NCBI GenBank assembly: GCA_965224465.1
Contig: OZ245049.1
Location: 810,001 to 842,000, forward strand
DNA length: 32,000 nucleotides
Origin: Flavobacteriaceae bacterium
GTDB taxonomy: Bacteria > Bacteroidota > Bacteroidia > Flavobacteriales > Flavobacteriaceae
Reading direction: 5' to 3'
Shown: positions 2,386-19,540 of the stretch, piece by piece
How the letters are laid out: every line of letters starts with the position of its first letter
Numbering within the stretch: the stretch's first letter is position 1
Program-made: the position numbers and the translations under genes
The notes under the pieces: generated by a model
What the model was told of the DNA's origin: nothing
Databases searched by the model: none
What the model saw: only the letters and a program-made list of their open reading frames with translations

Positions 2386-2585
2386 TTAGTTTACAATATC
2401 ACCTTCGTTATACTCGTGTCTTATTTTAAATAGTTTATCCTTTTTAAAGAATAAAGACACTGAGGAATTCCCTGCCCTTGTAGAATTAATAGCATGAGAA
2501 AATGTAAAGTGCCACACATTATAATTCATTATATCTGGATCAAAATCTTTTTCCAACCACTTATTAGAAAGTACAATTTGGTATT

Positions 2586-3712
2586 CTTAAATTCAAGTAG
2601 TAAATGCAACTTCTTAGATTTGAGAGTTTCTAAGGTTTATTTTTCAAAACAGAAAGAGAGTCACCTCTCCTTCATGTTTTGATGGAATAGTTACCTTACG
2701 CCCTCAAGTCTCTGAAAAAGAAGTAGTATGGCACATTTAACCAAAGAACAAAGATACACAATTACCTGTATGTTATCACAGGGGTATTCTAAGTCCAAAA
2801 TAGCCTTGGCTATAGGGAAACATAAAAGCACTATAAGTAGAGAATGCAAACGTAATTGCGATGCTCGTAGCGGCTCCTATGAATACGAATTAGCACATAG
2901 AAAGTGGAAGGATAGACATAAGAAAAAGCGAAAGCACATTAGGTTTACTGAGAAGATAAGAAGCGAGGTTGAAAAGCTGTTACGTGATGATTATAGTCCA
3001 GGACAAGTGGTTGGAATACTTACTAAGCAAGGAAAAGAAGTTGTTTCAGTAGAACGTATTTATCAGCATATCTGGCAAGATAAGAAGCATAAAGGCACAC
3101 TCTATACTCATTTAAGAAGACAAGGAAGGAAGTACAGGAAACGAGGGGCATTCAAGGACTCACGTGGTATTATTAAAGATCGAATTAGTATTGAAAAACG
3201 ACCAGATATAGTGGAGAAAAGAGAACGTTTTGGAGATTTAGAAGTGGATTTAATAATTGGAAAAAATCATCATCAAGCCATTCTTACAATCAATGACAGG
3301 GCTTCTGGGATGCTAAAGATGAAAAAAATAGCATCTAAAGAATCTTCTGTTGTAACAGCTGCTATTAATGAGCTTTTAGAAGATTGGATACCGTATATAA
3401 ACACTATAACAGCTGATAACGGAAAAGAGTTTGCAGGACATAAAAAAGTAGCTGAATTTTTAGGAATCGATTATTATTTTGCACATCCTTACCATTCATG
3501 GGAAAGAGGATCTAATGAAAATTTAAATGGGCTTATTCGGCAATATTTCCCTAAAGGAAGTGACTTTTCGATATTAACTAAGCAGATGATAAAACAGGTG
3601 GAAGGAAAATTAAATAGAAGGCCTAGGAAAAGGTTTTCATATCAAAACCCTATATTTGTAATGAATCAATTATTGTTTAACCAAAAAGTTGCGTTTATAA
3701 GTTGAATTCAGC
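2586..3712 (+). mobile_element. IS30-family insertion sequence (copy A) with imperfect terminal inverted repeats and a 3-bp ATT target duplication
   Basis: Left end CTTAAATTCAAGTAGTAAATGCAACTT. The reverse complement of the right end is GCTGAATTCAACTTATAAACGCAACTT. ATT occurs at 2583-2585 and 3713-3715; the uninterrupted paralog reads GGTATTTTTCATATATGGG. Confidence 0.88.
2728..3705 (+). CDS. IS30-family DDE transposase
   Basis: 325-aa ORF with an N-terminal HTH-like segment (LTKEQRYTITCMLSQGYSKSKIALAIGKHKSTISRECKRN) and a DDE-type core (GDLEVDLIIGK..., ITADNGKEFAGH, HPYHSWERGSNENLNGLIRQYFPKG). Confidence 0.92.
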   Translation: MAHLTKEQRYTITCMLSQGYSKSKIALAIGKHKSTISRECKRNCDARSGSYEYELAHRKWKDRHKKKRKHIRFTEKIRSEVEKLLRDDYSPGQVVGILTKQGKEVVSVERIYQHIWQDKKHKGTLYTHLRRQGRKYRKRGAFKDSRGIIKDRISIEKRPDIVEKRERFGDLEVDLIIGKNHHQAILTINDRASGMLKMKKIASKESSVVTAAINELLEDWIPYINTITADNGKEFAGHKKVAEFLGIDYYFAHPYHSWERGSNENLNGLIRQYFPKGSDFSILTKQMIKQVEGKLNRRPRKRFSYQNPIFVMNQLLFNQKVAFIS

Positions 3713-4201
3713 ATTTTTTATATATGGGATTTTTGTAAATCGATAGTAACTTTTTATAGATCTCTCCAAGTGGACCATTAACATGGATAGCGATTTGATC
3801 CGATACATTTTCTGGCCATTTTGGAATAGCATCCAAAAGAGCCCCTCCTTTTTCTATAGCACTTACCTTGTTTTGATTAAATCGGATAAGGACCCGTTGT
3901 GTGACTCCCAATGTTCTCTCTAAAGTAATAGCGTGGTATAAACTAATATCACTTTTAATTTCAGTTGGATTTGAAAAGGGTTGCCTGTAAGGTATTGATA
4001 CATCGTGAAAATTTTTCTCTATCCCTAATTCTTGTAGTTGACGGTACACATCTGTAGGAGAACTTCCAATTTTAAGTTTCCATTTTTTCCCACTAGTTAT
4101 GTTTTCAGTTTTCGGAAAATCAACATCTATTTCACACGAGAATAAAAAGAATAAAGAGGCGATTAATAAAGCTATTTTTTTCATGATCTTAATTTATATG
4201 T

Positions 4202-4391
4202 TCAACCATTTATCTTTTTGGATAATTTTCCCACATCGTCATCATCGGCTGCTTTATAAAGATTTTTTACTTCTTTATTTTGATGTTTCCAAAAGAAACC
4301 AGCACTCATGCAGGCATCTTTTAAATTGGAGGCTATTTTTTTTGAAAAAGTTTTAAGTGTTACTATAACGTTTTCTGCAAATAGCGTATAA
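4202..4391 (-). pseudogene. 3'-truncated orphan effector fragment fused to the amplification junction
   Basis: Minus strand encodes ...FSKKIASNLKDACMSAGFFWKHQNKEVKNLYKAADDDDVGKLSKKING then a stop. Homology to the effector ends at 4204/4205, where upstream sequence of the 222-aa lipoprotein gene begins. Confidence 0.8.
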
Positions 4392-5123
4392 TCATTCCTT
4401 TATAATATTTCTTTTAATTTCAGTAATATCTTGTAATTTATTAATATCAATATATTTGTTGTAATTATTAATATTAATTAAGGTATCAAGTTGGTAATAA
4501 TATTCTTCCTCGTCCATCCTAAAATTATATTTCATAAATACTTTATTAATAGTTAATGTATTGTTGTTATTTATTTTAAAGTAAATATCATAAGCTTGTA
4601 AATAATTATTATGCATCTTAAATTTAGCCAAAGTGTCATTAATTTTTATAATTTCTAGTGAACCTGACATATTGCTAGGGCCGTATGGTCTTTTAGCCTC
4701 GCCATAGTTACAATAAGTGTAAAATATAAACTCCTTTTTGTCCTTTGTTTTTTTTAAATGAATAGGATAGGTGCTAAATTTATTAGTCCCTGTTTTATAA
4801 TAACTCAATTCGTTGAAAGATTGAATTACAAATCTTGAAGTTTTATTATTTAAAGTAATTTTACTTTCTGTTTCTTCATTTTCTTTATGAAACAAAACAG
4901 TATCTCCTTCTTTTACTGGAAGTGTATGTATTAGATTTCTAACAAACCCTTTTTTACGTCTATTAGTTTCTATATTACTATAGTCATATATAATAGTATC
5001 TATGACTATAGTATTCTTTTTATTCTCTGTATTTTTTAGAGTCATTTTACAAGAATTTGTAATCATTAAACAAAATAATACTAATAGTACACTACTGGTT
5101 CTTTTCACAATTTTCATAATCAA
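4392..5123 (-). CDS. 243-aa lipoprotein, putative immunity protein (variant a)
   Basis: Signal peptide plus lipobox-like LMITNSC. Paralog of five other ORFs in the window. Start overlaps the preceding effector fragment by 32 nt. Confidence 0.85.
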   Translation of the reverse strand: MIMKIVKRTSSVLLVLFCLMITNSCKMTLKNTENKKNTIVIDTIIYDYSNIETNRRKKGFVRNLIHTLPVKEGDTVLFHKENEETESKITLNNKTSRFVIQSFNELSYYKTGTNKFSTYPIHLKKTKDKKEFIFYTYCNYGEAKRPYGPSNMSGSLEIIKINDTLAKFKMHNNYLQAYDIYFKINNNNTLTINKVFMKYNFRMDEEEYYYQLDTLININNYNKYIDINKLQDITEIKRNIIKE

Positions 5124-5424
5124 ATATTAATTTTAAATCATCTGTATATTTTTGGCGTTGGATTAATCCTTTTGTACCTCCATTTATCTTTTTGGTTAAT
5201 TTTTCCACATCATCATCATCAGCTGCTTTATAAAGATTTTTTACTTCTTTATTTTGATGTTTCCAAAAGAAACCAGCACTCATGCAGGCATCTTTTAAAT
5301 TGGAGGCTATTTTTTTTGAAAAAGTTTTAAGTGTTTCTATAACATTTTCTGCAAATAGCGCATAATCATTCCTTTCTAATATTTCTTTTAATTTCAGTAA
5401 CATCTTGTAATTTATTAATATCAA
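5092..5424 (-). pseudogene. orphan effector C-terminal cassette (tip type 2); here the frame is open for 110 codons
   Basis: The last 63 aa are identical to the C-terminus encoded at 7037-7228. Effector homology begins around TLKTFSKKIASNLKDAC. The extra upstream codons overlap the 3' end of immunity gene 5366-6097. Confidence 0.8.
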
Positions 5425-6097
5425 TATATTTGTTGTAATTATTAATATTAATTAAGGTATCAAGTTGGTAATAATATTCTTCCTCGTCAATCCTAAAATT
5501 ATATTTCATAAATACTTTATTAATAGTTAATGTATTGTTGTTATTTATTTTAAAGTAAATATCATAAGCTTGTAAATTATTATTATGCACATCAAATTTT
5601 GCTAAAGTATCATTGATTTTTATAATATCTACTGCGCTTGACATAGCACTAGGTCCGTATACTTTTTCAGCCTCGCCATAATTACAATAAGTGTAAAATA
5701 TAAACTCCTTTTGGGCCTTTATTTTTTTTAAACTAATAAGGTAGGTGCTAAATTTATTGGTACCTGTTTTATAATAACTCGATCCGTTAGAAGATTGAAC
5801 TACAAAACTTGAAGTATTGTAATTTATATTAATTTTACTTTCTGTTTCTCCATTTTCTTTAAGAAACAAAACAGTATCACCTTCTTTTACAGGAAGTGTA
5901 TGTATTAAGTCCAAATCAAATCCTTCTTTACGTCTATTTGTCTCTATATTACTATAGTCATATATAATAGTATCTATAACGATACTATTACTGCTCTTCT
6001 CTGTGTTTTTTAGAGTCATTTTACAAGAATTTGTAATCATTAAACAAAATAATACTAATAGTACACTACTGGTTCTTTTCACAATTTTCATAATCAA
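5366..6097 (-). CDS. 243-aa lipoprotein, putative immunity protein (variant b)
   Basis: Same N-terminal signal and lipobox and same conserved C-terminal half as the paralogs, with a variable central region. Confidence 0.85.
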   Translation of the reverse strand: MIMKIVKRTSSVLLVLFCLMITNSCKMTLKNTEKSSNSIVIDTIIYDYSNIETNRRKEGFDLDLIHTLPVKEGDTVLFLKENGETESKININYNTSSFVVQSSNGSSYYKTGTNKFSTYLISLKKIKAQKEFIFYTYCNYGEAEKVYGPSAMSSAVDIIKINDTLAKFDVHNNNLQAYDIYFKINNNNTLTINKVFMKYNFRIDEEEYYYQLDTLININNYNKYIDINKLQDVTEIKRNIRKE

Positions 6098-6254
6098 ATA
6101 TTATTTTTAAATCATCCGTATATTTTTGGCGTTGGCTTAATCCATTTCTACCTCCATTTATTGCTTTAGTTATTTTTTTTACATCATCGTCATCAGCAGA
6201 TTTATAAACATCAAAATATTGATTTTGATGTTTCCAAAAGAAACCAGCACTCAT
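6066..6254 (-). pseudogene. orphan effector C-terminal cassette (tip type 3)
   Basis: 62-aa MSAGFFWKHQNQYFDVYKSADDDDVKKITKAINGGRNGLSQRQKYTDDLKIIFDYENCEKNQ, identical to the fragments at 13960-14148 and 15002-15190. There is no N-terminal catalytic part upstream. Confidence 0.85.
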
Positions 6255-6336
6255 GCAGGCATCTTTTAAATTGGAGGCTATTTTTTTTGAAAAAATTTTA
6301 AGTGTTTCTATAACGTTTTCTGCAAATAGCGTATAA

Positions 6337-7068
6337 TCATTCCTTTATAATATTTCTTTTAATTTCAGTAACATCTTGTAGCTTGTAAAGGTCAATATAT
6401 TTATTCTTATTATTAATATTTATTAAGGTATCAAGTTGGTAATAATATTCTTCCTCGTCCATCCTAAAGTTATATTTCATAAATACTTTATTAATAGTTA
6501 ATGTATTGTTATTATCTATTTTAAAGTAAATATCATAAGCTTCTAAATTATTATTATGCACATCAAATTTAGCTAAAGTGTCATTGATTTTTATGATATC
6601 TACTGCGCTTGACATATTACTAGGGCCGTATGGTTTTTTAGCTTCGCCATAGTTACAATAAATATAAAATAGAAACTCCTTTTTGTCCTTTATTTTTTTT
6701 AAATGAATAGGATAGGTGCTAAATTTATTAGTACCTGTTTTATAATATCTCAATTCGTTGAAAGATTGAATTACGAAACTTGAAGTTTTATTATTTATAT
6801 TAATTTTACTTCCTTTCTCTTGTGAAAACTTAATAAACAAAACAGTATCACCTTCTTTTACAGGAAGTGTATGTATTAAGTCCAAATCAAATCCATCTTT
6901 ACGTCTATTAGTTTCTATATTACTATAGTCATAGATAATAGTATCTATAACGATACTATTACTGCTCTTCTCTGTATTTTTTAGAGTCATTTTACAAGAA
7001 CATGTAATAATTAAAGAAAATAATACTAATAGCACACTACTGGTTCTTTTCACAATTTTCATAATCAA
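6337..7068 (-). CDS. 243-aa lipoprotein, putative immunity protein (variant c), directly downstream of the IS66-disrupted effector
   Basis: Paralog of the other immunity-like lipoproteins, with a 32-nt overlap with the effector 3' end. Confidence 0.85.
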   Translation of the reverse strand: MIMKIVKRTSSVLLVLFSLIITCSCKMTLKNTEKSSNSIVIDTIIYDYSNIETNRRKDGFDLDLIHTLPVKEGDTVLFIKFSQEKGSKININNKTSSFVIQSFNELRYYKTGTNKFSTYPIHLKKIKDKKEFLFYIYCNYGEAKKPYGPSNMSSAVDIIKINDTLAKFDVHNNNLEAYDIYFKIDNNNTLTINKVFMKYNFRMDEEEYYYQLDTLININNKNKYIDLYKLQDVTEIKRNIIKE

Positions 7069-7566
7069 ATATTAATTTTAAATCATCTGTATATTTTTGG
7101 CGTTGGATTAATCCTTTTGTACCTCCATTTATCTTTTTGGTTAATTTTTCCACATCATCATCATCAGCTGCTTTATAAAGATTTTTTACTTCTTTATTTT
7201 GATGTTTCCAAAAGAAACCAGCACTCATGCAGGCATCTTTTAAATTGGAGGCTATTTTTTTTGAAAAAGTTTTAAGTGTTTTTAAAAATTTTTCAGGGAA
7301 GCCATGTTTAGTGCCATACTTTGCTAAGTAAGCGGTAACACTTTGGTATTTATCATCACGTTTTGCAATATAAATTTTAAAAAGAGGCGTAAATACTTCA
7401 GTACTATTAGATTCTTTATGAATAATTCTTTCTTGTTCGTCGTAACAAGCTAAATAGTTGTAATCGTGTGTTATTTGTTTTATTCCTCTACCTCTAAATT
7501 CTCTACCTCCATAATAGTTTAAACCATCTCCTTTATTTGTAAGCGTACGGTAAAGTACACCCTTGA

Positions 7567-9069
7567 TTATTTATCAACAGGCTTCCAATTTTGAGGCAGT
7601 AACTCCGAAAGTTTATTAGCCTTATGTTCTGGTAATCTATTAAGGACATCACATAGCCACGTATGTGGGTTTACGTTATTCTTTTTGCAAGTAGCAAAAA
7701 AGCTATAAAATAGAGCTATGTTTTGTGCGGACTCATGACTGCCAGCAAAGAGATAATTTTTTCTGCCAATAGCTAAAGGTCTTATGGCATTTTCTATATT
7801 ATTGTTGTCTATTTCAAACCTGCCATCATCGATGTATAGTTTTAGGTTTTGCCATATTTTAAGAGTATAAGCAATTGCTTTTCCTATGGCACTTTTAGGC
7901 AGTACGTTTTTTCGCTCTTTTGTAAGATAAATTTCTATTCCGTCTAAAACAGGTGATGCATGTTTTTCTCTATATGCTTTAGTTTGCTCAATAGTTAATT
8001 CTTGTTCTTTTATTTTACGTTCTATCTTGTATAGCTTTTGAATTTCCAACAAAACAACATCCGCTCTTTTAGGATCATTATCCAGCGCCTTCTCAAAATA
8101 CCGCCTAGCATGAGCCATGCAACCTAAAAGAGTAATTTCTCCTTTTGTTGTTAAGTTTTGGTATGCAGCATACCCATCGGACTGTAGTGTCCCATTGAAA
8201 TCTTTAAAAAACTCTTCTGGAACAACTTTTCCTCTCCCTTTATTGTATTCAAAAAGAACTAAATTTTTAACAGGATTTCGATACACCCACATATACCCTC
8301 TGTGTGTTGATTTTTTCTTGTCTTTATCTAAAACCTTTATAGGAGATTCGTCTGCTTGAATATAATTGGCATTTTCTAAAAACTGAGCCTTAAATGTATC
8401 GTATAAAGGAGCGATAAGCTCCGAACTTTTAGATACCCATCCTCCAATTGTTGATTTACTTACTTTTAAATCTTGTCGTTTAAAAATTTGAATTAATCTG
8501 TAAAGTGGTAAATGGTCTACAAATTTTGAAATAAGTATAAAGGCCAATAAACTTGCTGATGCATTTCCTTTAGGTATCGGTAAGCTTGGTAATTCTGCTA
8601 TAACAACGCCTTTTTCTTCCGGAAGTGCATATTTAGGTCTTACAATTCGTCTTACAAAAACGGAAAGAGGCGTTATTTCTAAAAGTTCTGTAACTTCTTC
8701 TCCTATTTTTACAGCTCCTTCTTCTATGTGCTTAGGCTCTATAATCTCTTCTACTCTCGGAAAATGCGCAGGTATAGAAGAGCGAACAGGTTTTTTCTTT
8801 CCTTTCTTCTTTTGTTTTCTTTCGTAGATTACAATATGTTTTTTGTATGCCTCTTCTTTCTCAGCTATTATTTTTCCGAAAAGCGACAATTGATTTGTGT
8901 CAACAGGGATAAAACGTTCGCTTTTAGACCCGAAAACCATTCTTTTAAGCTGCTCGTATTGCTGCTTAATTTCAGCTAGTTCTTGAGCTTTTTTTTCAAG
9001 TTCAATCTTTAAAATTACCAGCTCTTTTTGTATGTCTATTGTATTGTTTTCCACACTATAAATATACAA
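7567..9069 (-). CDS. IS66-family transposase (TnpC-type)
   Basis: 500 aa with an N-terminal coiled coil followed by FGSKSERF, a central DDE-like region and CMAHARRYF, all typical of IS66 transposases. Confidence 0.92.
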   Translation of the reverse strand: MYIYSVENNTIDIQKELVILKIELEKKAQELAEIKQQYEQLKRMVFGSKSERFIPVDTNQLSLFGKIIAEKEEAYKKHIVIYERKQKKKGKKKPVRSSIPAHFPRVEEIIEPKHIEEGAVKIGEEVTELLEITPLSVFVRRIVRPKYALPEEKGVVIAELPSLPIPKGNASASLLAFILISKFVDHLPLYRLIQIFKRQDLKVSKSTIGGWVSKSSELIAPLYDTFKAQFLENANYIQADESPIKVLDKDKKKSTHRGYMWVYRNPVKNLVLFEYNKGRGKVVPEEFFKDFNGTLQSDGYAAYQNLTTKGEITLLGCMAHARRYFEKALDNDPKRADVVLLEIQKLYKIERKIKEQELTIEQTKAYREKHASPVLDGIEIYLTKERKNVLPKSAIGKAIAYTLKIWQNLKLYIDDGRFEIDNNNIENAIRPLAIGRKNYLFAGSHESAQNIALFYSFFATCKKNNVNPHTWLCDVLNRLPEHKANKLSELLPQNWKPVDK

Positions 9070-9112
9070 AAAACAAGACTAAATAGCAGGTAAAACCTAC
9101 AGTTTTATTGAA

Positions 9113-9466
9113 TTATTTAGCCTCTAAATAACGTTCGTTTTTCTGAGTATTTATAATACTAATTCCGTCTAAAACCATAACCATTTGGGTATAACTCAAA
9201 ACTACTAATCCATCTTCAATGTCGTATTTTGGAAGCTCAAAAATACCTCGTTCCAATCGTTTATAATACAGTACAAATCCTCCAGGTCGCCAATGAAGAA
9301 GTTTTAGTTTATTTTTTTGCTTATTGATAAATGCATAAACACTATTTCTATCTCGCTCTTGTTCCATGTGCTCACTAACTAATCCACTTAATCCATTAAA
9401 TCCTTTTCGCATATCAACTGCAGATAAGTGATAATAATACGTGTGTTCTGTACCTAATCCTAACAT
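9113..9466 (-). CDS. IS66 Orf2 / TnpB-like accessory protein
   Basis: 117 aa with VDMRKGFNGLSGLV and LLHWRPGGFVLYYKRLERGIFELP, the characteristic IS66 Orf2 pattern, immediately upstream of the transposase. Confidence 0.9.
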   Translation of the reverse strand: MLGLGTEHTYYYHLSAVDMRKGFNGLSGLVSEHMEQERDRNSVYAFINKQKNKLKLLHWRPGGFVLYYKRLERGIFELPKYDIEDGLVVLSYTQMVMVLDGISIINTQKNERYLEAK

Positions 9467-10106
9467 TTATATTTTCGTTTTTGTTTAGATGCAAAAATTA
9501 GATTATTTTTAACTTCTTACAAGATGTAGTTCTCCGTACGCTTACCTTTATTTAGAGCTTCATAGGTATTTACAAATCTTGTTGATTCATGGTAAGATTG
9601 TGCTAGAAAATGAATTTTACGAATACATGTTTTTATGTCATATTTATTAAAAGTTTTGTTTAGGTATTCTGCAAATAGGCTATAATTGTTTGCCTCACTA
9701 GATTTTATTTTTTCACTTCTTTTAGATTGAAAAATATTAGTTCCTAAATCTGAAAATTTTGTTATCCTCTTAACAACTCTTTTAATTTCTTCTTTTCCTT
9801 CGTACTCTTTAGAAGAATATGTGCCTTTTTCTTTATCTATTAATTTGTAGAATCCTTTTTTCTTTTTTCTATCTTTTAATTCAAAAAATTCATCCCCATT
9901 GGCATTGCTATATAATTTATTTCCATTTTTATGAGATTGACCTTGGGCTTCAACTACAACTTCTTTTTCTCTTAATTCCTTAACTATCTTTTTTAACTCT
10001 GTTACTGTTATATCCCTATTACAATAACAAGGTTCAATAATGTTTAAATCTTCAAATTCATGACTTATATGTTCATGTTCTGTAAACCAAGCTCTTCCCA
10101 TAGTAT

Positions 10107-10805
10107 TTAGTTTTGTTCTGTAATTGTTTTTAACTTTAATTTCATTGTATCAGCCGTTATATTTACATGTAATATATCGTCTGTTAAAACTTCATTATTA
10201 TACTCAAAATCTAATTTGTTATTATCAAGGTCAATAGCCAATTCTTTACCCGCAGCGTTTAATGTTTTTAAAACAAAAAAGACTTCTTTACCTCGTTTTA
10301 AATTATTTTTTGGCATTTTATTACCCTCTAAATCGGTATAATACATTTCTATAATTTCAGGTTCTTCTTGTTGCTCTATTACAGTTGGTTCAACTTCTAT
10401 AAAAGGATCTTCAAACACCCAATTTTCTATTTTTTTAACATCTTTTATTTTAACAGCTCCACACGTTATCTCTAAATTAATGTGTAAGGGTAAATTGTCT
10501 TGATTGTCAAATTCTTCTGTAAGGCCTACAATATAGGCTTTGTGGAATTCTACTTTGTACAAGGTTTTAAACTCATCTCTGTCATAAAATATTAATTCAC
10601 CGCTAAAACTAGCATTTGGTGAAAACATATAGTGATACAAATCGCTATCAAACCCCGTAGATTCAAACATTAAATGGAATGGGCTTTTACGCGTTGTTGT
10701 CGTAGGATTTCCCGTAATATCTTTTAGTTTGTATAAGGTGTATTCTGCTCTTAATAACGTTCTTTCTTTTCCATCTATAATGGCGATGCCTTTAAAACTA
10801 CTCAT
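10107..10805 (-). CDS. tssD: type VI secretion tube protein TssD/Hcp-like with a ~95-aa C-terminal extension (copy 2)
   Basis: The N-terminal ~130 aa follow the Bacteroidota TssD pattern (see feature 17031-17729). Differs from copy 3 at one residue. Confidence 0.8.
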   Translation of the reverse strand: MSSFKGIAIIDGKERTLLRAEYTLYKLKDITGNPTTTTRKSPFHLMFESTGFDSDLYHYMFSPNASFSGELIFYDRDEFKTLYKVEFHKAYIVGLTEEFDNQDNLPLHINLEITCGAVKIKDVKKIENWVFEDPFIEVEPTVIEQQEEPEIIEMYYTDLEGNKMPKNNLKRGKEVFFVLKTLNAAGKELAIDLDNNKLDFEYNNEVLTDDILHVNITADTMKLKLKTITEQN

Positions 10806-11632
10806 GGCTTTTCAATTTCTGGATTCATCTTTTAATTTTTAATAGTTATAGATATTTTCTTACCCTGACACTAGCCCCATAGTATCACAATAGCAATTCC
10901 GAACATGATGGTATATCCATTTAGTTCACATTACAGGACGGGCTTATTATTAGGGTGTATCTATTTTTTTAAACGTAGGTCAAATATATAAAATAATGTT
11001 ATACGCAGCATGTTTTTATGGTTTACCCCCACATTTTAGGGGGTAAATCCCCGTAGCGCTGTCTAGAAACAGAAAACAATCTTTCGGAGTGCACCTTGTA
11101 CCCTCAGGTAAAAGCTGTTGGCTACAGATATAGTACTGTTTATTTGGTAATTACAAGAGGTTGACGGCTCTTTTACGTAGCTATAAAAACAGGAATTAAT
11201 CAAGTAGAATTACGATTAGTACACGTCCAATAAACCTGACGAGAATAAGCCCCTATAAATCATAACAAATCAATAAGACTCAAAACAAGAACAATTGCGT
11301 ACCTGTAAAAAAAAAGGTTGAAATATAGGGGGTTGTTCAAAGCAAGGAAACAAAAATCACAAATTAAAACATGCATCATGACAAGTAAAAATACAGATGT
11401 ATACTGCGCATATCTTTTACGTCACAAATAGCAAGAACGCTTGCCTATAAAAAAATACAATTTGTAAAAATTTCCGGGTGCGCGTGAAATTATATACCTG
11501 TGTTAATCTGTTTAAGTTTATGTTGTTCTAATTACAGTTTTCTCCCTCAATTTGAGCGTTTAATTCTCAGAGACGCTGCCTCTAAATAAAGAATAGTCTT
11601 TCAAAGTAAAGATCAAACCCTTAGAGGGGGAT
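10806..11632 (-). repeat. ~830-nt non-coding spacer between the lipoprotein gene and tssD (copy 2)
   Basis: No ORF of 60 aa or more on either strand. Near-identical to 17730-18557. Its lipoprotein-proximal half also occurs at 1921-2385. Confidence 0.9.
11022..11047. other. perfect 9-bp GC-rich stem-loop inside the spacer (TTTACCCCC-ACATTTTA-GGGGGTAAA)
   Basis: Read directly from the sequence. Not followed by a T-run on either strand, so it is not a canonical terminator. An identical copy lies at 17946-17971. Confidence 0.6.
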
Positions 11633-12301
11633 TTAGTTTACAATATCATCTTCGTTATACTCGTGTCTTATTTTAAATAGTTTATCCTTTTTAAAGAATA
11701 AAGACACTGAGGAATTCCCTGCCCTTGTAGAATTAATAGCATGAGAAAATGTAAAGTGCCACACATTATAATTCATCATATCTGGGTCAAAATCTTTTTC
11801 CAACCACTTATTAGAAAGCACAATTTGGTATTTTTCATATATGGGATTTTTGTAAATCGCTAGCAACTTTTTATAGATCTCTCCAAGTGGATCATTAACA
11901 TGGATAGCGATTTTATCCGATACATTTTCTGGCCATTTTGGAATAGCATCCAAAAGAGCCCCTCCTATTTCTATAGCACTTACCTTGTTTTGATTAAATC
12001 GGATAAGGATCCGTTGTGTGACTCCCAATGTTCTCTCTAAAGTAATAGCGTGGTATAAACTAATATCACTTTTAATTTCAGTTGGATTTGAAAAGGGTTG
12101 CCTGTAAGGTATTGAAACATCGTGAAAATTTTTCTCTATCCCTAATTCTTGTAGTTGACGGTACACGTCTATAGGAGAACTTCCAATTTGAAGTGTCCAT
12201 TTTTTCCCACTAGTTATGTTTTCAGTTTTCGGAAAATCATCATCTATTTCACACGAGAATAAAAAGAATAAAGAGGCGATTAATAAAGCTATTTTTTTCA
12301 T
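11633..12301 (-). CDS. 222-aa lipoprotein of unknown function (copy 2)
   Basis: MKKIALLIASLFFLFSCEIDDD... has a signal peptide plus lipobox Cys. By hand alignment it differs from copy 3 at 9 nucleotides, 6 of which change the amino acid. Confidence 0.85.
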   Translation of the reverse strand: MKKIALLIASLFFLFSCEIDDDFPKTENITSGKKWTLQIGSSPIDVYRQLQELGIEKNFHDVSIPYRQPFSNPTEIKSDISLYHAITLERTLGVTQRILIRFNQNKVSAIEIGGALLDAIPKWPENVSDKIAIHVNDPLGEIYKKLLAIYKNPIYEKYQIVLSNKWLEKDFDPDMMNYNVWHFTFSHAINSTRAGNSSVSLFFKKDKLFKIRHEYNEDDIVN

Positions 12302-12319: not shown

Positions 12320-12566
12320 TCAACCATTTATCTTTTTGGATAATTTTCCAACATCATCATCATCGGCTGCTTTATAAAGACCTTTTACTTCTTTATCTTG
12401 ATGTTTCCAAAAGAAACCAGCGCTCATGCAGGCATCTTTTAAATTGGAGGCTATTTTTTTTTGAAAAAGTTTTAAGTGTTACTATAACGTTTTCTGCAAA
12501 TAGCGTATAATCATTCCTTTATAATATTTCTTTTAATTTCAGTAATATCTTGTAATTTATTAATAT
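12320..12566 (-). pseudogene. 3'-truncated orphan effector fragment plus the last ~18 codons of an immunity gene, cut by IS30 copy B
   Basis: Encodes ...ACMSAGFFWKHQDKEVKGLYKAADDDDVGKLSKKING then a stop (12320-12427). Same junction with lipoprotein-upstream DNA as at 4204/4205. 12510-12566 matches an immunity 3' end (compare 4392-4447). Confidence 0.8.
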
Positions 12567-13691
12567 GCTGAATTCAAGTCACAAACGCAACTTTTAGTTA
12601 AATAATAATTGTTCCATTACAAATATAGGGTTTTGATATTTATGTCTCTTCCTAGGTCTGTTATTTAATTTTGTTTCTACCTCTTTGATTCTTTGATCTG
12701 TTAGGTTTGTAAAGTCACTTCCTTTGGCAAAATATTGTCTAATCAAACCATTTAAATTTTCGTTAGATCCTCTTTCCCAAGAGTGATATGGATGCGCAAA
12801 AAAGTAATCAATACATAAATTTTCTGCAACCTGCTCATGGCCTGCAAATTCTTTTCCATTATCAGCTGTTATAGTATGTAGATAAGGCTTCCAGTCTTCT
12901 AATATTTCATTGATAGCTTTAGTGACAACAACTGCTTCTTTAGAGCTTACTTTTTTCATTTTAAGCATTCCAGAAGCTCTATCATTTACGGTAAGTATGG
13001 CTTGATTATGGTTTTTACCTATGATTAAATCGACCTCTAAATCTCCAAATCGATTTCTTTGTTCAACAACTTCAGGGCGTTGTTCTATACTAATACGATT
13101 CTTTATAACCCCTCTAGAATCCTTTGATGAGCCACGTTTTCTATATCTCCTTCCCTGTCTGCGAAGGTGTGTATGTAAATCACCATCATTCCTCTTGTCT
13201 TCCCTAATATGCTGATATATACGCTCAATAGACACCGTTTCTTTACCTTGTTTTTTTAGGACACCAACTACTTGCTCAGGACTATAATCGTCTCGCAATA
13301 ACAACTCTATTGCTTGTTGAATATCTTCTGTAAAGCGTTTTCTTTTAGGCTTTTCTTTATGACGTTTAGCATACTTTTTTTGGGCTAATTCATGCTTGTA
13401 AACTCCATTTCTTTTGTCTGAATTACGCTTAATCTCTTTGCTAATAACAGACTTGTCTTTTCCTATAGCAGCTGCTATCTCAACCTGTTTATAACCTTGT
13501 TTTAACATGCAACAAATTGTGTATCTTTGCGCTTGGGTGATGTGTTTCATACAACTTCTTTTTTCGAGATTTGAGACCGTAAGATACATATCCATCAAGA
13601 CAAGAAAGGTAGGTTTTCCTACTTTTCTGTTTTGAAAATATAACCATCATAGAATCAAATCGAAAAGTTGCGTTTATTAGTTGAATTTAAG
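12567..13691 (-). mobile_element. IS30-family insertion sequence (copy B, inverted relative to copy A, diverged), with no target duplication
   Basis: Ends are GCTGAATTCAAGTCACAAACGCAACTT and AAGTTGCGTTTATTAGTTGAATTTAAG. The flanking triplets differ (TAT / AAT), and the flanks come from different parts of immunity genes. Confidence 0.85.
12594..13598 (-). CDS. IS30-family DDE transposase (the true start may be the internal MKHITQAQRYT at 13550)
   Basis: 334-aa ORF collinear with 2728-3705 (same HTH and DDE-region motifs) but with many substitutions. Confidence 0.9.
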   Translation of the reverse strand: MMDMYLTVSNLEKRSCMKHITQAQRYTICCMLKQGYKQVEIAAAIGKDKSVISKEIKRNSDKRNGVYKHELAQKKYAKRHKEKPKRKRFTEDIQQAIELLLRDDYSPEQVVGVLKKQGKETVSIERIYQHIREDKRNDGDLHTHLRRQGRRYRKRGSSKDSRGVIKNRISIEQRPEVVEQRNRFGDLEVDLIIGKNHNQAILTVNDRASGMLKMKKVSSKEAVVVTKAINEILEDWKPYLHTITADNGKEFAGHEQVAENLCIDYFFAHPYHSWERGSNENLNGLIRQYFAKGSDFTNLTDQRIKEVETKLNNRPRKRHKYQNPIFVMEQLLFN

Positions 13692-13991
13692 AATTAAAAA
13701 ACTTGAAGTTTTATTATTTATATTAATTTTACTTTCTCTTTCTCTATTTTCTTTAAGAAACAAAACAGTATCACCTTCTTTTACAGGAAGTGTATGTATT
13801 AAATCCAAATCAAATCCATCTTTACGTCTATTAGTTTCTATATTACTATAGTCATAGATAATAGTATCTATAACGATACTATTACTGCTCTTCTCTGTGT
13901 TTTTTAGAGTCATTTTACAAGAATTTGTAATCATTAAACAAAATAATACTAATAGTACACTACTGGTTCTTTTCACAATTTTCATAATCAA
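13692..13991 (-). pseudogene. immunity lipoprotein gene truncated after ~100 codons by IS30 copy B
   Basis: ORF 13677-13991 matches the d/e-type immunity N-terminus through KTSSFLI and then reads into the IS end. Confidence 0.85.
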
Positions 13992-14261
13992 ATATTATTT
14001 TTAAATCATCCGTATATTTTTGGCGTTGGCTTAATCCATTTCTACCTCCATTTATTGCTTTAGTTATTTTTTTTACATCATCGTCATCAGCAGATTTATA
14101 AACATCAAAATATTGATTTTGATGTTTCCAAAAGAAACCAGCACTCATGCAGGCATCTTTTAAATTGGAGGCTATTTTTTTTGAAAAAATTTTAAGTGTT
14201 ACTAAAAAGTTTTCAGGGAAGCCATGTTTAGTACCATACTTTGCTAAATAAGCCGTAACAC
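13960..14261 (-). pseudogene. orphan effector C-terminal cassette (tip type 3) with longer upstream homology
   Basis: Effector homology extends upstream to VTAYLAKYGTKHGFPENFLVTLKIFSKKIASNLKDAC and breaks at about 14261. Confidence 0.8.
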
Positions 14262-14292
14262 ATGGTTAGCAACTGGGCTTTTTTTAGTGATT

Positions 14293-15033
14293 TCAATAAT
14301 TGTACTTTCTTCTATTTTTTTTATCTCGAGCAGCCCTTTTTAGCTTGTAAAGATCAATATATTTGTTCTTGTGATTAATATTTATTAAGGTATCTAGTTG
14401 ACTATAAAATCTTTCCTCTTCATTCATGAAATTATATTTAATAATTACTTTATTAATAGTTAATGTATTGTTATTATCAATTTTAAAGTAAATATCATAA
14501 GCTTGTAAATTATTATTATGCACCTTAAATTTAGCCAAAGTGTCATTAATCTTTATAATTTCTAGTGAGCCTGACATATTGCTAGGGCCGTATGGTCTTT
14601 CAGCTTCGCCATAGTTACAATAAATGTAAAATGTAGACACCTTTTTTGTCTTTTTGTTTTTAATACTAATTGGGTAGGTGTTAAATTTATTAGTCCCTGT
14701 TTTATAATAACTCGATCCGTTGCTAGAAGATTGAATTAAAAAACTTGAAGTTTTATTATTTATATTAATTTTACTTTCTCTTTCTCTATTTTCTTTAAGA
14801 AACAAAACAGTATCACCTTCTTTTACAGGAAGTATATGTATTAAATCCAAATCAAATCCATCTTTACGTCTATTTGTCTCTATATTACTATAGTCATATA
14901 TAATAGTATCTATAACGATACTATTACTGCTCTTCTCTGTGTTTTTTAGAGTCATTTTACAAGAATTTGTAATCATTAAACAAAATAATACTAATAGTAC
15001 ACTACTGGTTCTTTTCACAATTTTCATAATCAA
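14293..15033 (-). CDS. 246-aa lipoprotein, putative immunity protein (variant d, altered C-terminus)
   Basis: Almost identical to 15273-16007 over most of its length. It ends ...YKLKRAARDKKNRRKYNY instead of ...YKLQDVTEIKRNIIKE. Confidence 0.85.
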   Translation of the reverse strand: MIMKIVKRTSSVLLVLFCLMITNSCKMTLKNTEKSSNSIVIDTIIYDYSNIETNRRKDGFDLDLIHILPVKEGDTVLFLKENRERESKININNKTSSFLIQSSSNGSSYYKTGTNKFNTYPISIKNKKTKKVSTFYIYCNYGEAERPYGPSNMSGSLEIIKINDTLAKFKVHNNNLQAYDIYFKIDNNNTLTINKVIIKYNFMNEEERFYSQLDTLININHKNKYIDLYKLKRAARDKKNRRKYNY

Positions 15034-15190
15034 ATATTATTTTTAAATCATCCGTATATTTTTGGCGTTGGCTTAATCCATTTCTACCTCCATTTATTGC
15101 TTTAGTTATTTTTTTTACATCATCGTCATCAGCAGATTTATAAACATCAAAATATTGATTTTGATGTTTCCAAAAGAAACCAGCACTCAT
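15002..15190 (-). pseudogene. orphan effector C-terminal cassette (tip type 3)
   Basis: 62-aa fragment identical to those at 6066-6254 and 13960-14148, preceded by ...FSKKIASNLKDAC homology only. Confidence 0.85.
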
Positions 15191-15272
15191 GCAGGCATCT
15201 TTTAAATTGGAGGCTATTTTTTTTGAAAAAATTTTAAGTGTTTCTATAACGTTTTCTGCAAATAGCGTATAA

Positions 15273-16007
15273 TCATTCCTTTATAATATTTCTTTTAATT
15301 TCAGTAACATCTTGTAGCTTGTAAAGGTCAATATATTTATTCTTATTATTAATATTTATTAAGGTATCAAGTTGGTAATAATATTCTTCCTCGTCCATCC
15401 TAAAGTTATATTTCATAAATACTTTATTAATAGTTAATGTATTGTTATTATCAATTTTAAAGTAAATATCATAAGCTTGTAAATTATTATTATGCACCTT
15501 AAATTTAGCCAAAGTGTCATTAATCTTTATAATTTCTAGTGAGCCTGACATATTGCTAGGGCCGTATGGTCTTTCAGCTTCGCCATAGTTACAATAAATG
15601 TAAAATGTAGACACCTTTTTTGTCTTTTTGTTTTTAATACTAATTGGGTAGGTGTTAAATTTATTAGTCCCTGTTTTATAATAACTCGATCCGTTGCTAG
15701 AAGATTGAATTAAAAAACTTGAAGTTTTATTATTTATATTAATTTTACTTTCTCTTTCTCTATTTTCTTTAAGAAACAAAACAGTATCACCTTCTTTTAC
15801 AGGAAGTATATGTATTAAATCCAAATCAAATCCATCTTTACGTCTATTAGTTTCTATATTACTATAGTCATAGATAATAGTATCTATAACGATACTATTA
15901 CTGCTCTTCTCTGTATTTTTTAGAGTCATTTTACAAGAATTTGTAATCATTAAACATAATAATACAAATAGTACACTACTGGTTCTTTTCACAATTTTCA
16001 TAATCAA
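15273..16007 (-). CDS. 244-aa lipoprotein, putative cognate immunity protein of the intact effector (variant e)
   Basis: Signal peptide plus LMITNSC lipobox. The start overlaps the effector stop region by 32 nt. Confidence 0.85.
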   Translation of the reverse strand: MIMKIVKRTSSVLFVLLCLMITNSCKMTLKNTEKSSNSIVIDTIIYDYSNIETNRRKDGFDLDLIHILPVKEGDTVLFLKENRERESKININNKTSSFLIQSSSNGSSYYKTGTNKFNTYPISIKNKKTKKVSTFYIYCNYGEAERPYGPSNMSGSLEIIKINDTLAKFKVHNNNLQAYDIYFKIDNNNTLTINKVFMKYNFRMDEEEYYYQLDTLININNKNKYIDLYKLQDVTEIKRNIIKE

Positions 16008-17025
16008 ATATTAATTTTAAATCATCTGTATATTTTTGGCGTTCCTTTAATCCAGTAACTCCACCATTTATCTTATCAGTTAGTTCTTCTACATCGTCAT
16101 CATCAGCTGCTTTATAAAGATTTTTTACTTCTTTATTTTGATGTTTCCAAAAGAAACCAGCACTCATGCAGGCATCTTTTAAATTGGAGGCTATTTTTTT
16201 TGAAAAAGTTTTAAGTGTTTTTAAAAATTTTTCAGGGAAGCCATGTTTAGTGCCATACTTTGCTAAGTAAGCGGTAACACTTTGGTATTTATCATCACGT
16301 TTTGCAATATAAATTTTAAAAAGAGGCGTAAATACTTCAGTACTATTAGATTCTTTATGAATAATTCTTTCTTGTTCGTCGTAACAAGCTAAATAGTTGT
16401 AATCGTGTGTTATTTGTTTTATTCCTCTACCTCTAAATTCTCTACCTCCATAATAGTTTAAACCATCTCCTTTATTTAGAGCTTCATAGGTATTTACAAA
16501 TCTTGTTGATTCATGGTAAGATTGTGCTAGAAAATGAATTTTACGAATACATGTTTTTATGTCATATTTATTAAAAGTTTTGTTTAGGTATTCTGCAAAT
16601 AGGCTATAATTGTTTGCCTCACTAGATTTTATTTTTTCACTTCTTTTAGATTGAAAAATATTAGTTCCTAAATCTGAAAATTTTGTTATCCTCTTAACAA
16701 CTCTTTTAATTTCTTCTTTTCCTTCGTACTCTTTAGAAGAATATGTGCCTTTTTCTTTATCTATTAATTTGTAGAATCCTTTTTTCTTTTTTCTATCTTT
16801 TAATTCAAAAAATTCATCCCCATTGGCATTGCTATATAATTTATTTCCATTTTTATGAGATTGACCTTGGGCTTCAACTACAACTTCTTTTTCTCTTAAT
16901 TCCTTAACTATCTTTTTTAACTCTGTTACTGTTATATCCCTATTACAATAACAAGGTTCAATAATGTTTAAATCTTCAAATTCATGACTTATATGTTCAT
17001 GTTCTGTAAACCAAGCTCTTCCCAT
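15976..17025 (-). CDS. putative T6SS cargo effector: GH19/COG3179-type lysozyme-like peptidoglycan hydrolase with a charged N-terminal region (intact copy)
   Basis: Contains IHFLAQSYHESTRF (catalytic Glu context), FRGRGIKQITHDYNY, CMSAGFFWKHQ and INGGVTGLKERQ. These match the predicted-chitinase/GH19 lysozyme family pattern as I recall it. Starts 5 nt after tssD. Confidence 0.8.
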   Translation of the reverse strand: MGRAWFTEHEHISHEFEDLNIIEPCYCNRDITVTELKKIVKELREKEVVVEAQGQSHKNGNKLYSNANGDEFFELKDRKKKKGFYKLIDKEKGTYSSKEYEGKEEIKRVVKRITKFSDLGTNIFQSKRSEKIKSSEANNYSLFAEYLNKTFNKYDIKTCIRKIHFLAQSYHESTRFVNTYEALNKGDGLNYYGGREFRGRGIKQITHDYNYLACYDEQERIIHKESNSTEVFTPLFKIYIAKRDDKYQSVTAYLAKYGTKHGFPEKFLKTLKTFSKKIASNLKDACMSAGFFWKHQNKEVKNLYKAADDDDVEELTDKINGGVTGLKERQKYTDDLKLIFDYENCEKNQ

Positions 17026-17030: not shown

Positions 17031-17729
17031 TTAGTTTTGTTCTGTAATTGTTTTTAACTTTAATTTCATTGTATCAGCCGTTATATTTACATGTAATATA
17101 TCGTCTGTTAAAACTTCATTATTATACTCAAAATCTAATTTGTTATTATCAAGGTCAATAGCCAATTCTTTACCTGCAGCGTTTAATGTTTTTAAAACAA
17201 AAAAGACTTCTTTACCTCGTTTTAAATTATTTTTTGGTATTTTATTACCCTCTAAATCGGTATAATACATTTCTATAATTTCAGGTTCTTCTTGTTGCTC
17301 TATTACAGTTGGTTCAACTTCTATAAAAGGATCTTCAAACACCCAATTTTCTATTTTTTTAACATCTTTTATTTTAACAGCTCCACACGTTATCTCTAAA
17401 TTAATGTGTAAGGGTAAATTGTCTTGATTGTCAAATTCTTCTGTAAGGCCTACAATATAGGCTTTGTGGAATTCTACTTTGTACAAGGTTTTAAACTCAT
17501 CTCTGTCATAAAATATTAATTCACCGCTAAAACTAGCATTTGGAGAAAACATATAGTGATACAAATCGCTATCAAACCCCGTAGATTCAAACATTAAATG
17601 GAATGGGCTTTTACGCGTTGTTGTCGTAGGATTTCCCGTAATATCTTTTAGTTTGTATAAGGTGTATTCTGCTCTTAATAACGTTCTTTCTTTTCCATCT
17701 ATAATGGCGATGCCTTTAAAACTACTCAT
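17031..17729 (-). CDS. tssD: type VI secretion tube protein TssD/Hcp-like with a ~95-aa C-terminal extension (copy 3)
   Basis: MSSFKGIAIIDGKERTLLRAEYTLYKLKDITGNPTTTTRKSPFHLMFESTGFDSDLYHYMF...GELIFYDRDE...YIVGLTEEFD...INLEITCGAVKIKDVKKIENW is collinear with Bacteroidota TssD proteins. Then comes an acidic linker EVEPTVIEQQEEPEIIE and an extra domain. Confidence 0.8.
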   Translation of the reverse strand: MSSFKGIAIIDGKERTLLRAEYTLYKLKDITGNPTTTTRKSPFHLMFESTGFDSDLYHYMFSPNASFSGELIFYDRDEFKTLYKVEFHKAYIVGLTEEFDNQDNLPLHINLEITCGAVKIKDVKKIENWVFEDPFIEVEPTVIEQQEEPEIIEMYYTDLEGNKIPKNNLKRGKEVFFVLKTLNAAGKELAIDLDNNKLDFEYNNEVLTDDILHVNITADTMKLKLKTITEQN

Positions 17730-18557
17730 GGCTTTTCAATTTCTGGATTCATCTTTTAATTTTTAATAGTTATAGATATTTTCTTACCCTGACACTAGCC
17801 CCATAGTATCACAATAGCAATTCCAAACATGATGGTATATCCATTTAGTTCACATTACAGGACGGGCTTATTATTAGGGTGTATCTATTTTTTTAAACGT
17901 AGGTCAAATATATAAAATAATGTTATACGCAGCATGTTTTTATGGTTTACCCCCACATTTTAGGGGGTAAATCCCCGTAGCGCTGTCTAGAAACAGAAAA
18001 CAATCTTTCGGAGTGCACCTTGTACCCTCAGGTAAAAGCTGTTGATTACAGGTATAGTGCTGTTTATCTAGTAATTACAAGAGGTTGACGGCTCTTTTAC
18101 TCAGCTATAAAAACAGGAATTAATCAAGTAGAATTACGATTAGTACACGTCCAATAAACCTGACGAGAATAAGCCCCCTATAAATCATAACAAATCAATA
18201 AGACTCAAAACAAGAACAATTGCGTACCTGTAAAAAAAAAGGTTGAAATATAGGGGGTTGTTCAAAGCAAGGAAACAAAAATCACAAATTAAAACATGCA
18301 TCATGACAAGTAAAATCACAGATGTATACAGCACATATCTTTTACGTCACAAATAGCAAGAACGCTTGCCTATAAAAAAATACAATTTGTAAAAATTTCC
18401 TGGTGCGCGTGAAATTATATACCTGTGTTAATCTGTTTAAGTTTATGTTGTTCTAATTACAGTTTTCTCCCTCAATTTGAGCGTTTAATTCTCAGAGACG
18501 CTGCCTCTAAATAAAGAATAGTCTTTCAAAGTAAAGATCAACCCCTAGGAAGGGGAT
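17730..18557 (-). repeat. ~830-nt non-coding spacer between the lipoprotein gene and tssD (copy 3)
   Basis: Near-identical to 10806-11632, with small clusters of substitutions (for example around 18040-18075 and 18310-18345). Confidence 0.9.
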
Positions 18558-19287: not shown

Positions 19288-19482
19288 TTAATGACGTATC
19301 CACACCGTTTTAGATAAAAATAATATAAGATTTCGTGTGTAGCTAAAACCATGATATAAACCCATTGCGTGAAAAGTTTCGTGTACCAATGTACTATTTG
19401 TAAATCCAGGACGTAAAACAATTACAGAGCGATTAGTTAAAGGTATACTATAAGCTCTACCAAACTTAGATTTTCCGCCTAG
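19288..19482 (-). pseudogene. C-terminal remnant of a metzincin-type zinc metallopeptidase (no start codon, in-frame TAG immediately upstream)
   Basis: Manual translation gives LGGKSKFGRAYSIPLTNRSVIVLRPGFTNSTLVHETFHAMGLYHGFSYTRNLILFLSKTVWIRH then a stop. HETFHAMGLYH fits HExxHxxGxxH. Confidence 0.6.
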
Positions 19483-19540
19483 CTAAAACAAAAAATAATT
19501 CCATTTGTAAACCATCACTTGGAAACAAATTTGGTATAAG
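19477..19540. repeat. 64-nt dispersed repeat, copy A
   Basis: GCCTAGCTAAAACAAAAAATAATTCCATTTGTAAACCATCACTTGGAAACAAATTTGGTATAAG. 54 of 64 positions are identical to 21534-21597 by hand alignment. Confidence 0.7.

Follow-up and report, generated by a model that had tools for sequence, protein, structure and literature searches.

Why should an effector gene be followed by several copies of its own 3' end, each accompanied by a complete gene for an immunity-like lipoprotein? The question is raised by a stretch of 32,000 nucleotides (nt) from a Flavobacteriaceae bacterium (GenBank assembly GCA_965224465.1, contig OZ245049.1, positions 810,001 to 842,000), referred to below as the window and numbered from its first letter, in which the effector gene lies directly behind a gene for a TssD/Hcp-like protein of a secretion system of type VI (T6SS). 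In our view this is likely to be an auxiliary T6SS(iii) locus of Hcp, effector and immunity genes, which carries an array of orphan immunity genes with effector remnants that arose via duplication and gene conversion. The initial annotation had described the repeats as tandem silent cassettes, each holding an exchangeable C-terminal effector tip and its immunity gene; tip exchange at the proposed boundary has indeed occurred, but tips and immunity genes are not consistently matched and no switching element was found in the window.

Organization of the locus

All of the relevant genes lie on the minus strand. A repeat search recovered six to eight in-register copies at a spacing of 971–977 nt and with 84–100% identity (positions 4173–7391 and 13682–16330), a pattern far beyond chance, and the repeat unit of ~974 bp consists of the last ~87 effector codons and a lipoprotein gene presumed to encode an immunity protein. 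The repeats of ~970 bp that had been described earlier are therefore present, the immunity starts at 7068/6097/5123 and 16007/15033/13991 were recovered as those of open reading frames (ORFs), and the presence in each repeat of a 5'-truncated effector piece with a complete immunity-like gene was confirmed.

These units are themselves part of a larger repeat. A block of ~6.9 kb, with the gene order lipo222 (a lipoprotein gene), ~830 nt of intergenic DNA, TssD/Hcp, effector, immunity array and truncated effector fragment, occurs twice in the window (macro-copies B and A) and is followed by a partial third copy, the region ending at a katG-like gene. Macro-copy B contains the only intact effector (tip T1), immunity B1, cassette B2 (T3), cassette B3 (T3, its immunity gene cut by an IS30-family insertion sequence, IS) and fragment B4, and macro-copy A contains an effector split by an IS66-family element, immunity A1, cassette A2 (T3), cassette A3 (T2) and the terminal fragment A4. 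Cassettes had been placed behind each full-length effector, which has to be corrected, as only effector B (15976–17025) is intact; because effector A is split by IS66, positions 7037–7538 are the 3' part of a full-length gene, of which 7037–7228 had been taken for a cassette. The features of the locus are as follows.

18558–19226, minus: lipo222 copy 1, lipoprotein gene (ORF), first gene of the macro-repeat, with a palindrome resembling a terminator 3' of the gene
17031–17729, minus: TssD/Hcp-like gene B, 232 amino acids (aa); Pfam PF17642 TssD, E=1e-24, residues 3–130
15976–17025, minus: intact effector B, 349 aa, tip T1 VEELTDKINGGVTGLKE; N-terminal CxC domain and GH19-like domain (residues ~138–349)
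16138–16218, minus: conserved head TLKTFSKKIASNLKDACMSAGFFWKHQN, left recombination boundary inside the GH19 domain; 99–100% identity in all 8 copies
15273–16001, minus: immunity-like lipoprotein B1, 242 aa from ATG, with a 26-nt overlap with the effector stop
15002–15262, minus: effector fragment B2, residues ~263–349, tip T3, starting at junction type 1
14293–15027, minus: immunity B2, body 97–100% identical to B1, divergent C-terminus KRAARDKKNRRKYNY, native 3' flank retained
13960–14259, minus: effector fragment B3, residues 250–349, tip T3, starting at junction type 2
13692–13985, minus: 5' part of immunity B3, codons 1–100, cut by IS30
12577–13690, minus: IS30-family element, transposase 12594–13598; immunity codons ~101–223 missing across the insertion
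12511–12576, minus: 3' remnant of an A3-like immunity gene, with junction type 1 next
12323–12500, minus: effector fragment B4, ending ...VGKLSKKING-stop, fused to the 21 nt preceding lipo222 (macro-duplication junction)
11633–12301, minus: lipo222 copy 2 (ORF)
10107–10805, minus: TssD/Hcp-like gene A, 99.6% identical to gene B
9546–10101, minus: 5' part of effector A, residues 1–186, identical to effector B
7539–9545, minus: IS66-family element, 2007 bp, TnpB 9113–9466, transposase 7567–9069; 8-bp target duplication AAATAAAG
7037–7538, minus: 3' part of effector A, residues 184–349, tip T2; not a cassette
6337–7062, minus: immunity A1 (ORF)
6066–6326, minus: effector fragment A2, tip T3, junction type 1
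5366–6091, minus: immunity A2, nearest, among the immunity genes in the window, to the immunity partner of a T3-like full-length effector on metagenome contig L030
5092–5355, minus: effector fragment A3, tip T2, junction type 1, identical to effector A over ~245 nt
4392–5117, minus: immunity A3 (ORF)
4205–4381, minus: effector fragment A4, ending KING-stop; same junction to lipo222 upstream sequence as B4
2389–4184, minus: lipo222 copy 3, split by a second IS30-family element

The Hcp-linked effector and its fragments

The effector gene starts 6 nt past the end of the TssD gene in both macro-copies, which bears out the proposed link with T6SS, and a TssD of 230 aa also precedes the effector in L031 (L numbers denote related loci). 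Beyond its TssD domain the Hcp/TssD protein has a C-terminal extension of ~100 aa with a weak match to DUF7238, which may be an adaptor for the effector family. T6SS core genes are absent from the window.

A single-sequence search matched effector residues ~138–349 to the GH19 endolysin 9ms7 (2.9e-10), and the profile matches in the PDB were 9ms7 (4.8e-23), 9eoi (3e-13), 4ok7 (5e-9) and class II/IV chitinases (~2e-3), plant and bacterial GH19 chitinases being among them. The AlphaFold2 (AF2) model of the effector has a predicted local distance difference test score (pLDDT) of 87, and its best Foldseek matches are GH19 endolysins, GH19 chitinases and the T6SS effector TseP (8xcl), to which the top 25 matches all belong (TMt ~0.30–0.69, probability 0.84–1.0). 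Residues E172, E181, N320 and R329 are invariant across 34 homologues; we take the first two to be the catalytic glutamates (Glu-x8-Glu, as in endolysin-type GH19) and the other two to lie in the substrate-binding motif INGG...R. The cleft for the substrate is lined by this motif in enzymes of the GH19 family. A Pfam scan of the effector at E<=0.01 gave no family, Glyco_hydro_19 (PF00182) included, and PF00182 is carried by one distant homologue only (P0090). Sequence, profile and fold agree in predicting a GH19-like fold for the C-terminal domain, as had been suggested at the outset, and the effector would be a peptidoglycan or chitin hydrolase of the GH19 type, presumably delivered by a T6SS. 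The domain includes an insertion of ~50 residues (215–262). Another candidate relative, Fte1 of F. johnsoniae, was rejected, being a DUF4280/PAAR-like protein instead of GH19. In effector residues 22–135, which matched no known family, the motif C-x-C-N-R-D (C25, C27) is invariant and the predicted structure is beta-rich.

In every unit the translation upstream of the immunity start contains the conserved TLK(T/I)FSKKIASNLKDACMSAGFFWKHQN. This head of 81 nt, 99–100% identical in all copies, substantiates the conserved effector stretch attributed to each repeat; behind it come one of three tips and lastly the conserved tail RQKYTDDLK(L/I)IFDYENCEKNQ with its stop codon. The homology boundary falls directly after SAGFFWKHQN, which places the recombination point inside the catalytic domain, where the initial annotation had located it; the three tip types and the truncated fourth, ending ...VGKLSKKING-stop at 4205–4381 and 12323–12500, are likewise as written there. 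Its estimate of the tip length was too generous: a variable tip exists, but of the ~50 codons only ~31 vary and the ~22 that follow are conserved. Nor would the exchange be confined to the last helix, since the fragments span residues ~263–349 (250–349 in one copy), which correspond to six predicted helices. As they have neither Glu172 and Glu181 nor a promoter and N-terminus, the fragments would be inert on their own. The tip adjoins N320 and R329, both of them invariant, in the motif INGG...R. Its variability at the family level is moderate and not the highest (1.27 bits vs 1.49 bits for residues 215–262).

Junctions between the units

Junction type 1 (...AAAGGAATGA-TTATACGCTA-TTTGCAGAAAAC...) is base-identical in five units (B2, A2, A3, A4 and B4), that is in 5 of the 6 junctions, and in it the native immunity end of the relatives (NIRK-stop and the flank AATCACTAAAAAAAGCCCAGTT...) is replaced by NIIKE-stop. 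Since independent illegitimate events would not repeat five base-identical joins with NIIKE, this points to a single founding junction that was amplified in tandem by unequal crossing-over, and the array would mainly be a product of such amplification, not a set of cassettes that were each acquired on their own.

Junction type 2, between B2 and B3, has a different structure, with ~43 nt of native immunity flank joined to the effector at SVTAYLAKY via GTGT(T)A microhomology; the same native 3' flank is found in L028, L030, L035, L036 and L001. It looks like a separate illegitimate join and is the expected trace of either a second duplication or a displacement of the Vibrio type by imported DNA. 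The macro-duplication left a third kind of junction, at which A4 and B4 both end in ...AAGATAAATGGT and continue directly with TGAACATAT..., the right side being the 21-nt sequence in front of lipo222 copy 1.

Mosaicism and age of the tip alleles

Identities between units differ from tract to tract, which makes the units mosaics. B1 and B2 have tips that are 69% identical, followed by immunity genes that are 97–100% identical over ~620 nt, whereas B2 and A2 are 100% identical in the tip and the 5' end of the immunity gene and then drop to 83–86%; A1 and A3 share a tip (100%) ahead of immunity genes of 81–94% identity, and B1 and A1 are 100% identical over the last 150 nt. The tip of effector A is that of cassette A3 over ~245 nt. 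The same pattern is seen between the macro-copies, where A and B have 4 mismatches in the 1700 nt that cover Hcp and the 5' region of the effector but 81 in the next 700 nt, all of them in the tip and in immunity codons ~60–190, with identity restored afterwards (Fisher p=8.5e-40). By these alignments, the tip of the full-length effector has been exchanged within the domain over evolutionary time.

Synonymous divergence (dS) between tip types amounts to 0.38–0.54 vs 0 in the adjacent head, and the ratio of nonsynonymous to synonymous divergence (dN/dS) of the tip is 0.2–0.6, which gives no support to positive selection there. The T3 tip is 92% nt-identical to that of a full-length effector in L030 and the T1 tip has 85% identity with those of L035 and of a paralogue in T. 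ovolyticum, while the tips inside the genome are only 70–83% identical to one another. For the heads the relation is reversed, with 99–100% identity within the genome and 84–90% between organisms. Being nearer to the effectors of other organisms than to each other, the tips are old alleles, either kept or imported, beside flanks under concerted evolution. Their pairing with immunity alleles varies: in L030 T3 and A2-type immunity again form a natural pair, B2 pairs T3 with B1-type immunity, and in the T1-like L035 the immunity gene is not closest to B1.

Insertion sequences

IS insertions have put three genes of the island out of action: an effector gene, an immunity gene and a copy of lipo222. 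In effector A the IS66 element, bounded by perfect terminal inverted repeats (GTAAGCGTACGG...), is inserted at codons 184–186, just past the catalytic glutamates, and the insertion looks recent, as its flanks are identical to copy B. Two different elements of the IS30 family are present, one in immunity B3, where ~370 nt of this gene, or else entire units, are missing across the insertion, and one in the third lipo222 copy (~2587–3668, with a transposase at 2728–3705 on the plus strand).

Immunity-like lipoproteins and expression signals

The immunity-like ORFs of the window have TTG starts, with a likely ATG 6 nt downstream, and their products have a lipoprotein signal peptide ending in ...SC, a location in keeping with the target of the effector; the gene overlaps the effector stop. 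In every relative examined an immunity-like gene lies behind the effector, and the two co-occur in L001, L030, L031, L032, L035 and L039. The AF2 model of the protein is all-beta (pLDDT 73).

A Bacteroidetes-type -7 box (TATATTTG) is found ~180 nt upstream of each Hcp gene (17905–17912 and 10981–10988, minus strand) and is a candidate operon promoter. The sole other -7 box within the arrays, at 6571, lies inside the coding sequence of immunity A1, and none was found upstream of the cassette immunity genes. Terminator-like hairpins occur only after lipo222 (with a site at 18542–18555 after copy 1) and in the IS elements, and none inside the arrays; a sigma-70 promoter scan gave fewer matches than shuffled sequence. 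Given the placement of the -7 boxes and the lack of terminator-like sites inside the arrays, these are probably read through from the Hcp promoter, with the orphan immunity genes co-transcribed.

Relatives in other genomes

The closest homologues come from Tenacibaculum ovolyticum and Psychroserpens. T. ovolyticum CP115918 (L001, 10001–15626) contains three tandem effector-immunity pairs, whose effectors are 54%, 39% and 73% identical to that of the window, and the third pair is decayed, its effector being internally deleted and its immunity gene frameshifted; in a second strain of this species, L039, only one pair is present, at another locus and beside an IS. L031 preserves the TssD-effector-immunity order of the window, and L032 has DUF4280/PAAR-like neighbours. 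A single contig came out of a scan of metagenomes for DAC[MI]SAGFFW, and a scan of genome contigs yielded only relatives of 30–40% (Chryseobacterium, Flavobacterium), which are single effectors without downstream fragments.

In Psychroserpens sp. NJDZ02 and in a metagenome contig, orphan immunity homologues lie behind only the last 31 effector codons, and the end of an SMI1_KNR4 gene is joined to these at INGG. Judging from these remnants, putative orphan immunity genes of the same family exist in other genera, with other breakpoints.

The Psychroserpens locus (L028, CP039451, 7218–16360) has a module present twice, consisting of a large protein (519 or 643 aa), SMI1_KNR4 and an orphan immunity homologue, with genes resembling those for beta-lactamase and erythromycin esterase between the two copies. 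The module may be a different effector-immunity system, which has taken the place of the GH19 effector. A coincidence of breakpoints was also observed: the terminal fragments of the window (4205/4204 and 12323/12322) end with ATAAATGGT (KING-stop), and the orphan remnants of L028 (9931–9960 and 15550–15580) and L036 (24–50) start with ATAAATGGTGG (INGG), where they are fused to the KYKWW-stop end of the SMI1_KNR4 gene. The INGG codons may be a preferred site of illegitimate recombination, or the coincidence may be due to chance.

Neighbouring genes

The lipo222 family has no Pfam domain, is conserved in length and comprises 84 clusters at >=49% identity, from Flavobacterium, Arenibacter, Prolixibacteraceae and Bacteroidales. 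The possibility that lipo222 is another orphan immunity gene was dropped, as the family is widespread and conserved and its homologue in Flavobacterium sp. TAB 87 belongs to the cargo of a region resembling an integrative and conjugative element, with an astacin peptidase alongside and no adjacent effector. A 222-aa gene in L039 is unrelated.

At the edge of the window (1 to ~1640, minus strand) lies the N-terminal part of a katG-like catalase-peroxidase gene, with a lipoprotein-type signal peptide ahead, which runs past the window edge. Upstream of the island a 65-nt direct repeat, 85% identical, is found in intergenic DNA (19476–19540 and 21533–21597). The G+C content of the window is 32%, and an Rfam scan of the window found no RNA family.

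Formation of the array and alternative explanations

In the reading that we prefer, an illegitimate join of the last immunity codons to effector codon ~258–263 would have created the founding unit of ~974 bp, which unequal crossing-over would then have amplified, and a second, independent join would have given rise to the longer B3 fragment. A later and larger duplication would have copied the whole block from lipo222 through Hcp and effector to the array at least twice. Recombination and gene conversion would have shuffled old, diverged alleles of two segments, the tip of ~31 codons at the INGG loop and the middle of the immunity gene, among the units and probably also with imported alleles, while the flanks were kept nearly identical. 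The orphan immunity genes downstream would probably protect against variant effectors of related bacteria, and the fragments would supply homology through which the expressed gene could receive tip or immunity segments, or through which a deletion could join these to it.

Several points weigh against this reading. The immunity family is very small (16 clusters among 5.8 billion proteins), the lipoprotein has no Pfam match, and its all-beta model has no meaningful PDB match and so lends no support to an inhibitor fold; it is the genomic context which suggests that the protein acts as a periplasmic immunity protein. The array is known from one genome only. The junctions could in principle have been kept identical by gene conversion, not by common descent, and the presence of old tips beside homogenised flanks suggests selection on tip identity, which a model of inert by-products does not explain.

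Among the alternatives, sequential displacement as described for Vibrio cholerae (PMC5361080), with each unit a separate import of a module that pushed the old effector 3' end and immunity gene downstream, has several observations in its favour. Junction 2 has exactly the predicted structure (native immunity 3' flank, microhomology and resident effector), the alleles resemble those of other organisms, and in Psychroserpens orphans lie behind an unrelated SMI1_KNR4 gene to which they are fused at INGG. Such a process should leave each orphan with its own junction, however, and here only junction 2 fits; the five base-identical junctions, with NIRK-stop changed to NIIKE-stop, would not be reproduced by independent events, so that displacement explains at most one or two units and is rather unlikely as the origin of the array. 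That the fragments and extra immunity genes are functionless products of recent, meaningless unequal crossing-over in a decaying locus would agree with the three disruptive IS insertions and with the decayed pair of T. ovolyticum, yet four of the five immunity genes without an IS insertion are intact despite a dS of 0.14–0.5 between alleles, their dN/dS is <1, and divergence is confined to discrete tracts instead of being uniform; we consider this very improbable. Mis-joining or duplication of repeats by the assembler would be conceivable in so repetitive a region, but the copies differ by specific alleles, by distinct junctions and by three IS insertions (that of IS66 with its clean 8-bp target duplication), and the window proteins map to a single contig of 5.24 Mb, which leaves hardly any room for an artefact.

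There remains the idea of functional silent cassettes, in which tip and matching immunity gene are swapped at the SAGFFW boundary so that the specificity of weapon and antidote changes, in the manner of Rhs/CdiA or pilE/pilS. It is favoured by macro-copies that depart from each other in the tip and the middle of the immunity gene alone, by the tip that effector A shares with cassette A3, by the recurrence of T3 with A2-type immunity as a full-length pair in L030 and by ancient tips shared across organisms beside homogenised flanks, which are the signature of maintained alleles; lying next to N320 and R329, the tip would also be a plausible contact surface for an immunity protein. On the other hand, tip and immunity body are uncoupled in B1/B2, in A1/A3 and in the T1-like L035 relative to B1, the dN/dS of the tip is <1, residues 215–262 vary more than the tip across the family, and the distant relatives are single effectors. 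With regard to dedicated switching machinery, a Pfam scan found no recombinase or other element in the window, only the IS66 and IS30 transposases. Taken together, these points make functional cassettes of that kind decidedly unlikely. A related proposal, that the array is a working allele library in which conversion or deletion at the 81-nt SAGFFW head swaps the loop of ~31 residues at the INGG cleft and, separately, the central part of the immunity gene, is speculative and in our opinion unlikely. Were it true, the lineage could escape the immunity proteins of its competitors while stocking immunity variants, effector-immunity specificity would be set by a small surface patch in a single catalytic fold, and the ancient tip alleles would be under balancing selection across species.

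Comparison with known systems

Orphan immunity arrays and cassettes of toxin C-termini are central to the diversification of contact-dependent weapons, and the array of the window can be set beside four kinds of system. Closest among them are the V. cholerae arrays treated further on. The acquired interbacterial defence islands of Bacteroidales, as Ross et al. reportedly described in 2019, stack orphan immunity genes without cognate effectors; they resemble the window in having stacked immunity genes in Bacteroidota, and L028 looks like such an island, but the window immunity genes lie directly behind their own effector family and not in a recombinase-associated island with diverse types.

The T6SS clusters of V. 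cholerae contain orphan immunity arrays with remnants of effector 3' ends (Kirchberger et al. 2017, PMC5361080), for which sequential displacement by homology-facilitated illegitimate recombination was proposed and tandem amplification was argued against (PMC5361080). The two arrays have in common the multiple immunity homologues behind one effector, the effector 3' pieces retained ahead of each, homologous recombination without fixed sites that results in mosaics, and a proposed protection against kin with old effectors. The window differs in that its units mostly share one junction, and hence point to tandem amplification, in that they are alleles of one effector-immunity family instead of unrelated types, and in the Hcp-linked cargo effector in a T6SS context of the Bacteroidota type, with the whole block itself duplicated. 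Novelty had been suggested for the locus, and this holds in so far as literature searches found no description of such an array in Flavobacteriia; the type of array as such was already known from V. cholerae (PMC5361080). In Pantoea, intra-chromosomal recombination has been noted among duplicated T6SS immunity genes.

With the orphan Rhs-CT and CdiA-CT modules, whose activation was shown in Salmonella (Koskiniemi et al. 2014, as reported in PMC5361080), the window shares promoterless, 5'-truncated toxin pieces that each have an immunity gene, and a stretch identical to the expressed gene (here the 81-nt head) that permits recombination or fusion by deletion. The likeness drawn by the initial annotation has its limits, as no demarcation motif (PxxxxDPxGL or VENN) is present in the window and the orphan corresponds to the last ~87 residues of a GH19 fold, not to a complete toxin domain. 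Since each orphan holds only part of the fold, exchange would yield intradomain chimeras between alleles of the same enzyme.

The GH19-type fold has been described as a T6SS antibacterial effector in TseP of Aeromonas dhakensis (8xcl; PMC11893102). The window effector shares with TseP and the GH19 endolysins (9ms7, 9eoi and 4ok7) the fold and the motifs HES...E, GRG.Q.T, SAG.FW and INGG...R, and is set apart from them by its N-terminal CxC domain and the insertion at 215–262; no report of a cassette array for these proteins was found in literature searches. If the tip is a specificity determinant, the locus would be a compact system in which to map the residues of a muramidase-type effector that are recognised by an immunity protein, and otherwise it still illustrates cleanly the remodelling of effector-immunity loci by duplication, gene conversion and IS insertion. 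Earlier descriptions mainly concern Rhs, CdiA and the T6SS of Vibrio, in which whole toxin domains or genes are exchanged. In the window this logic applies to an Hcp-linked GH19 effector of a flavobacterium, and what it adds is an exchange boundary that lies inside one catalytic fold, an array that probably grew by tandem amplification instead of serial acquisition, and old tips, shared across organisms, beside homogenised flanks.

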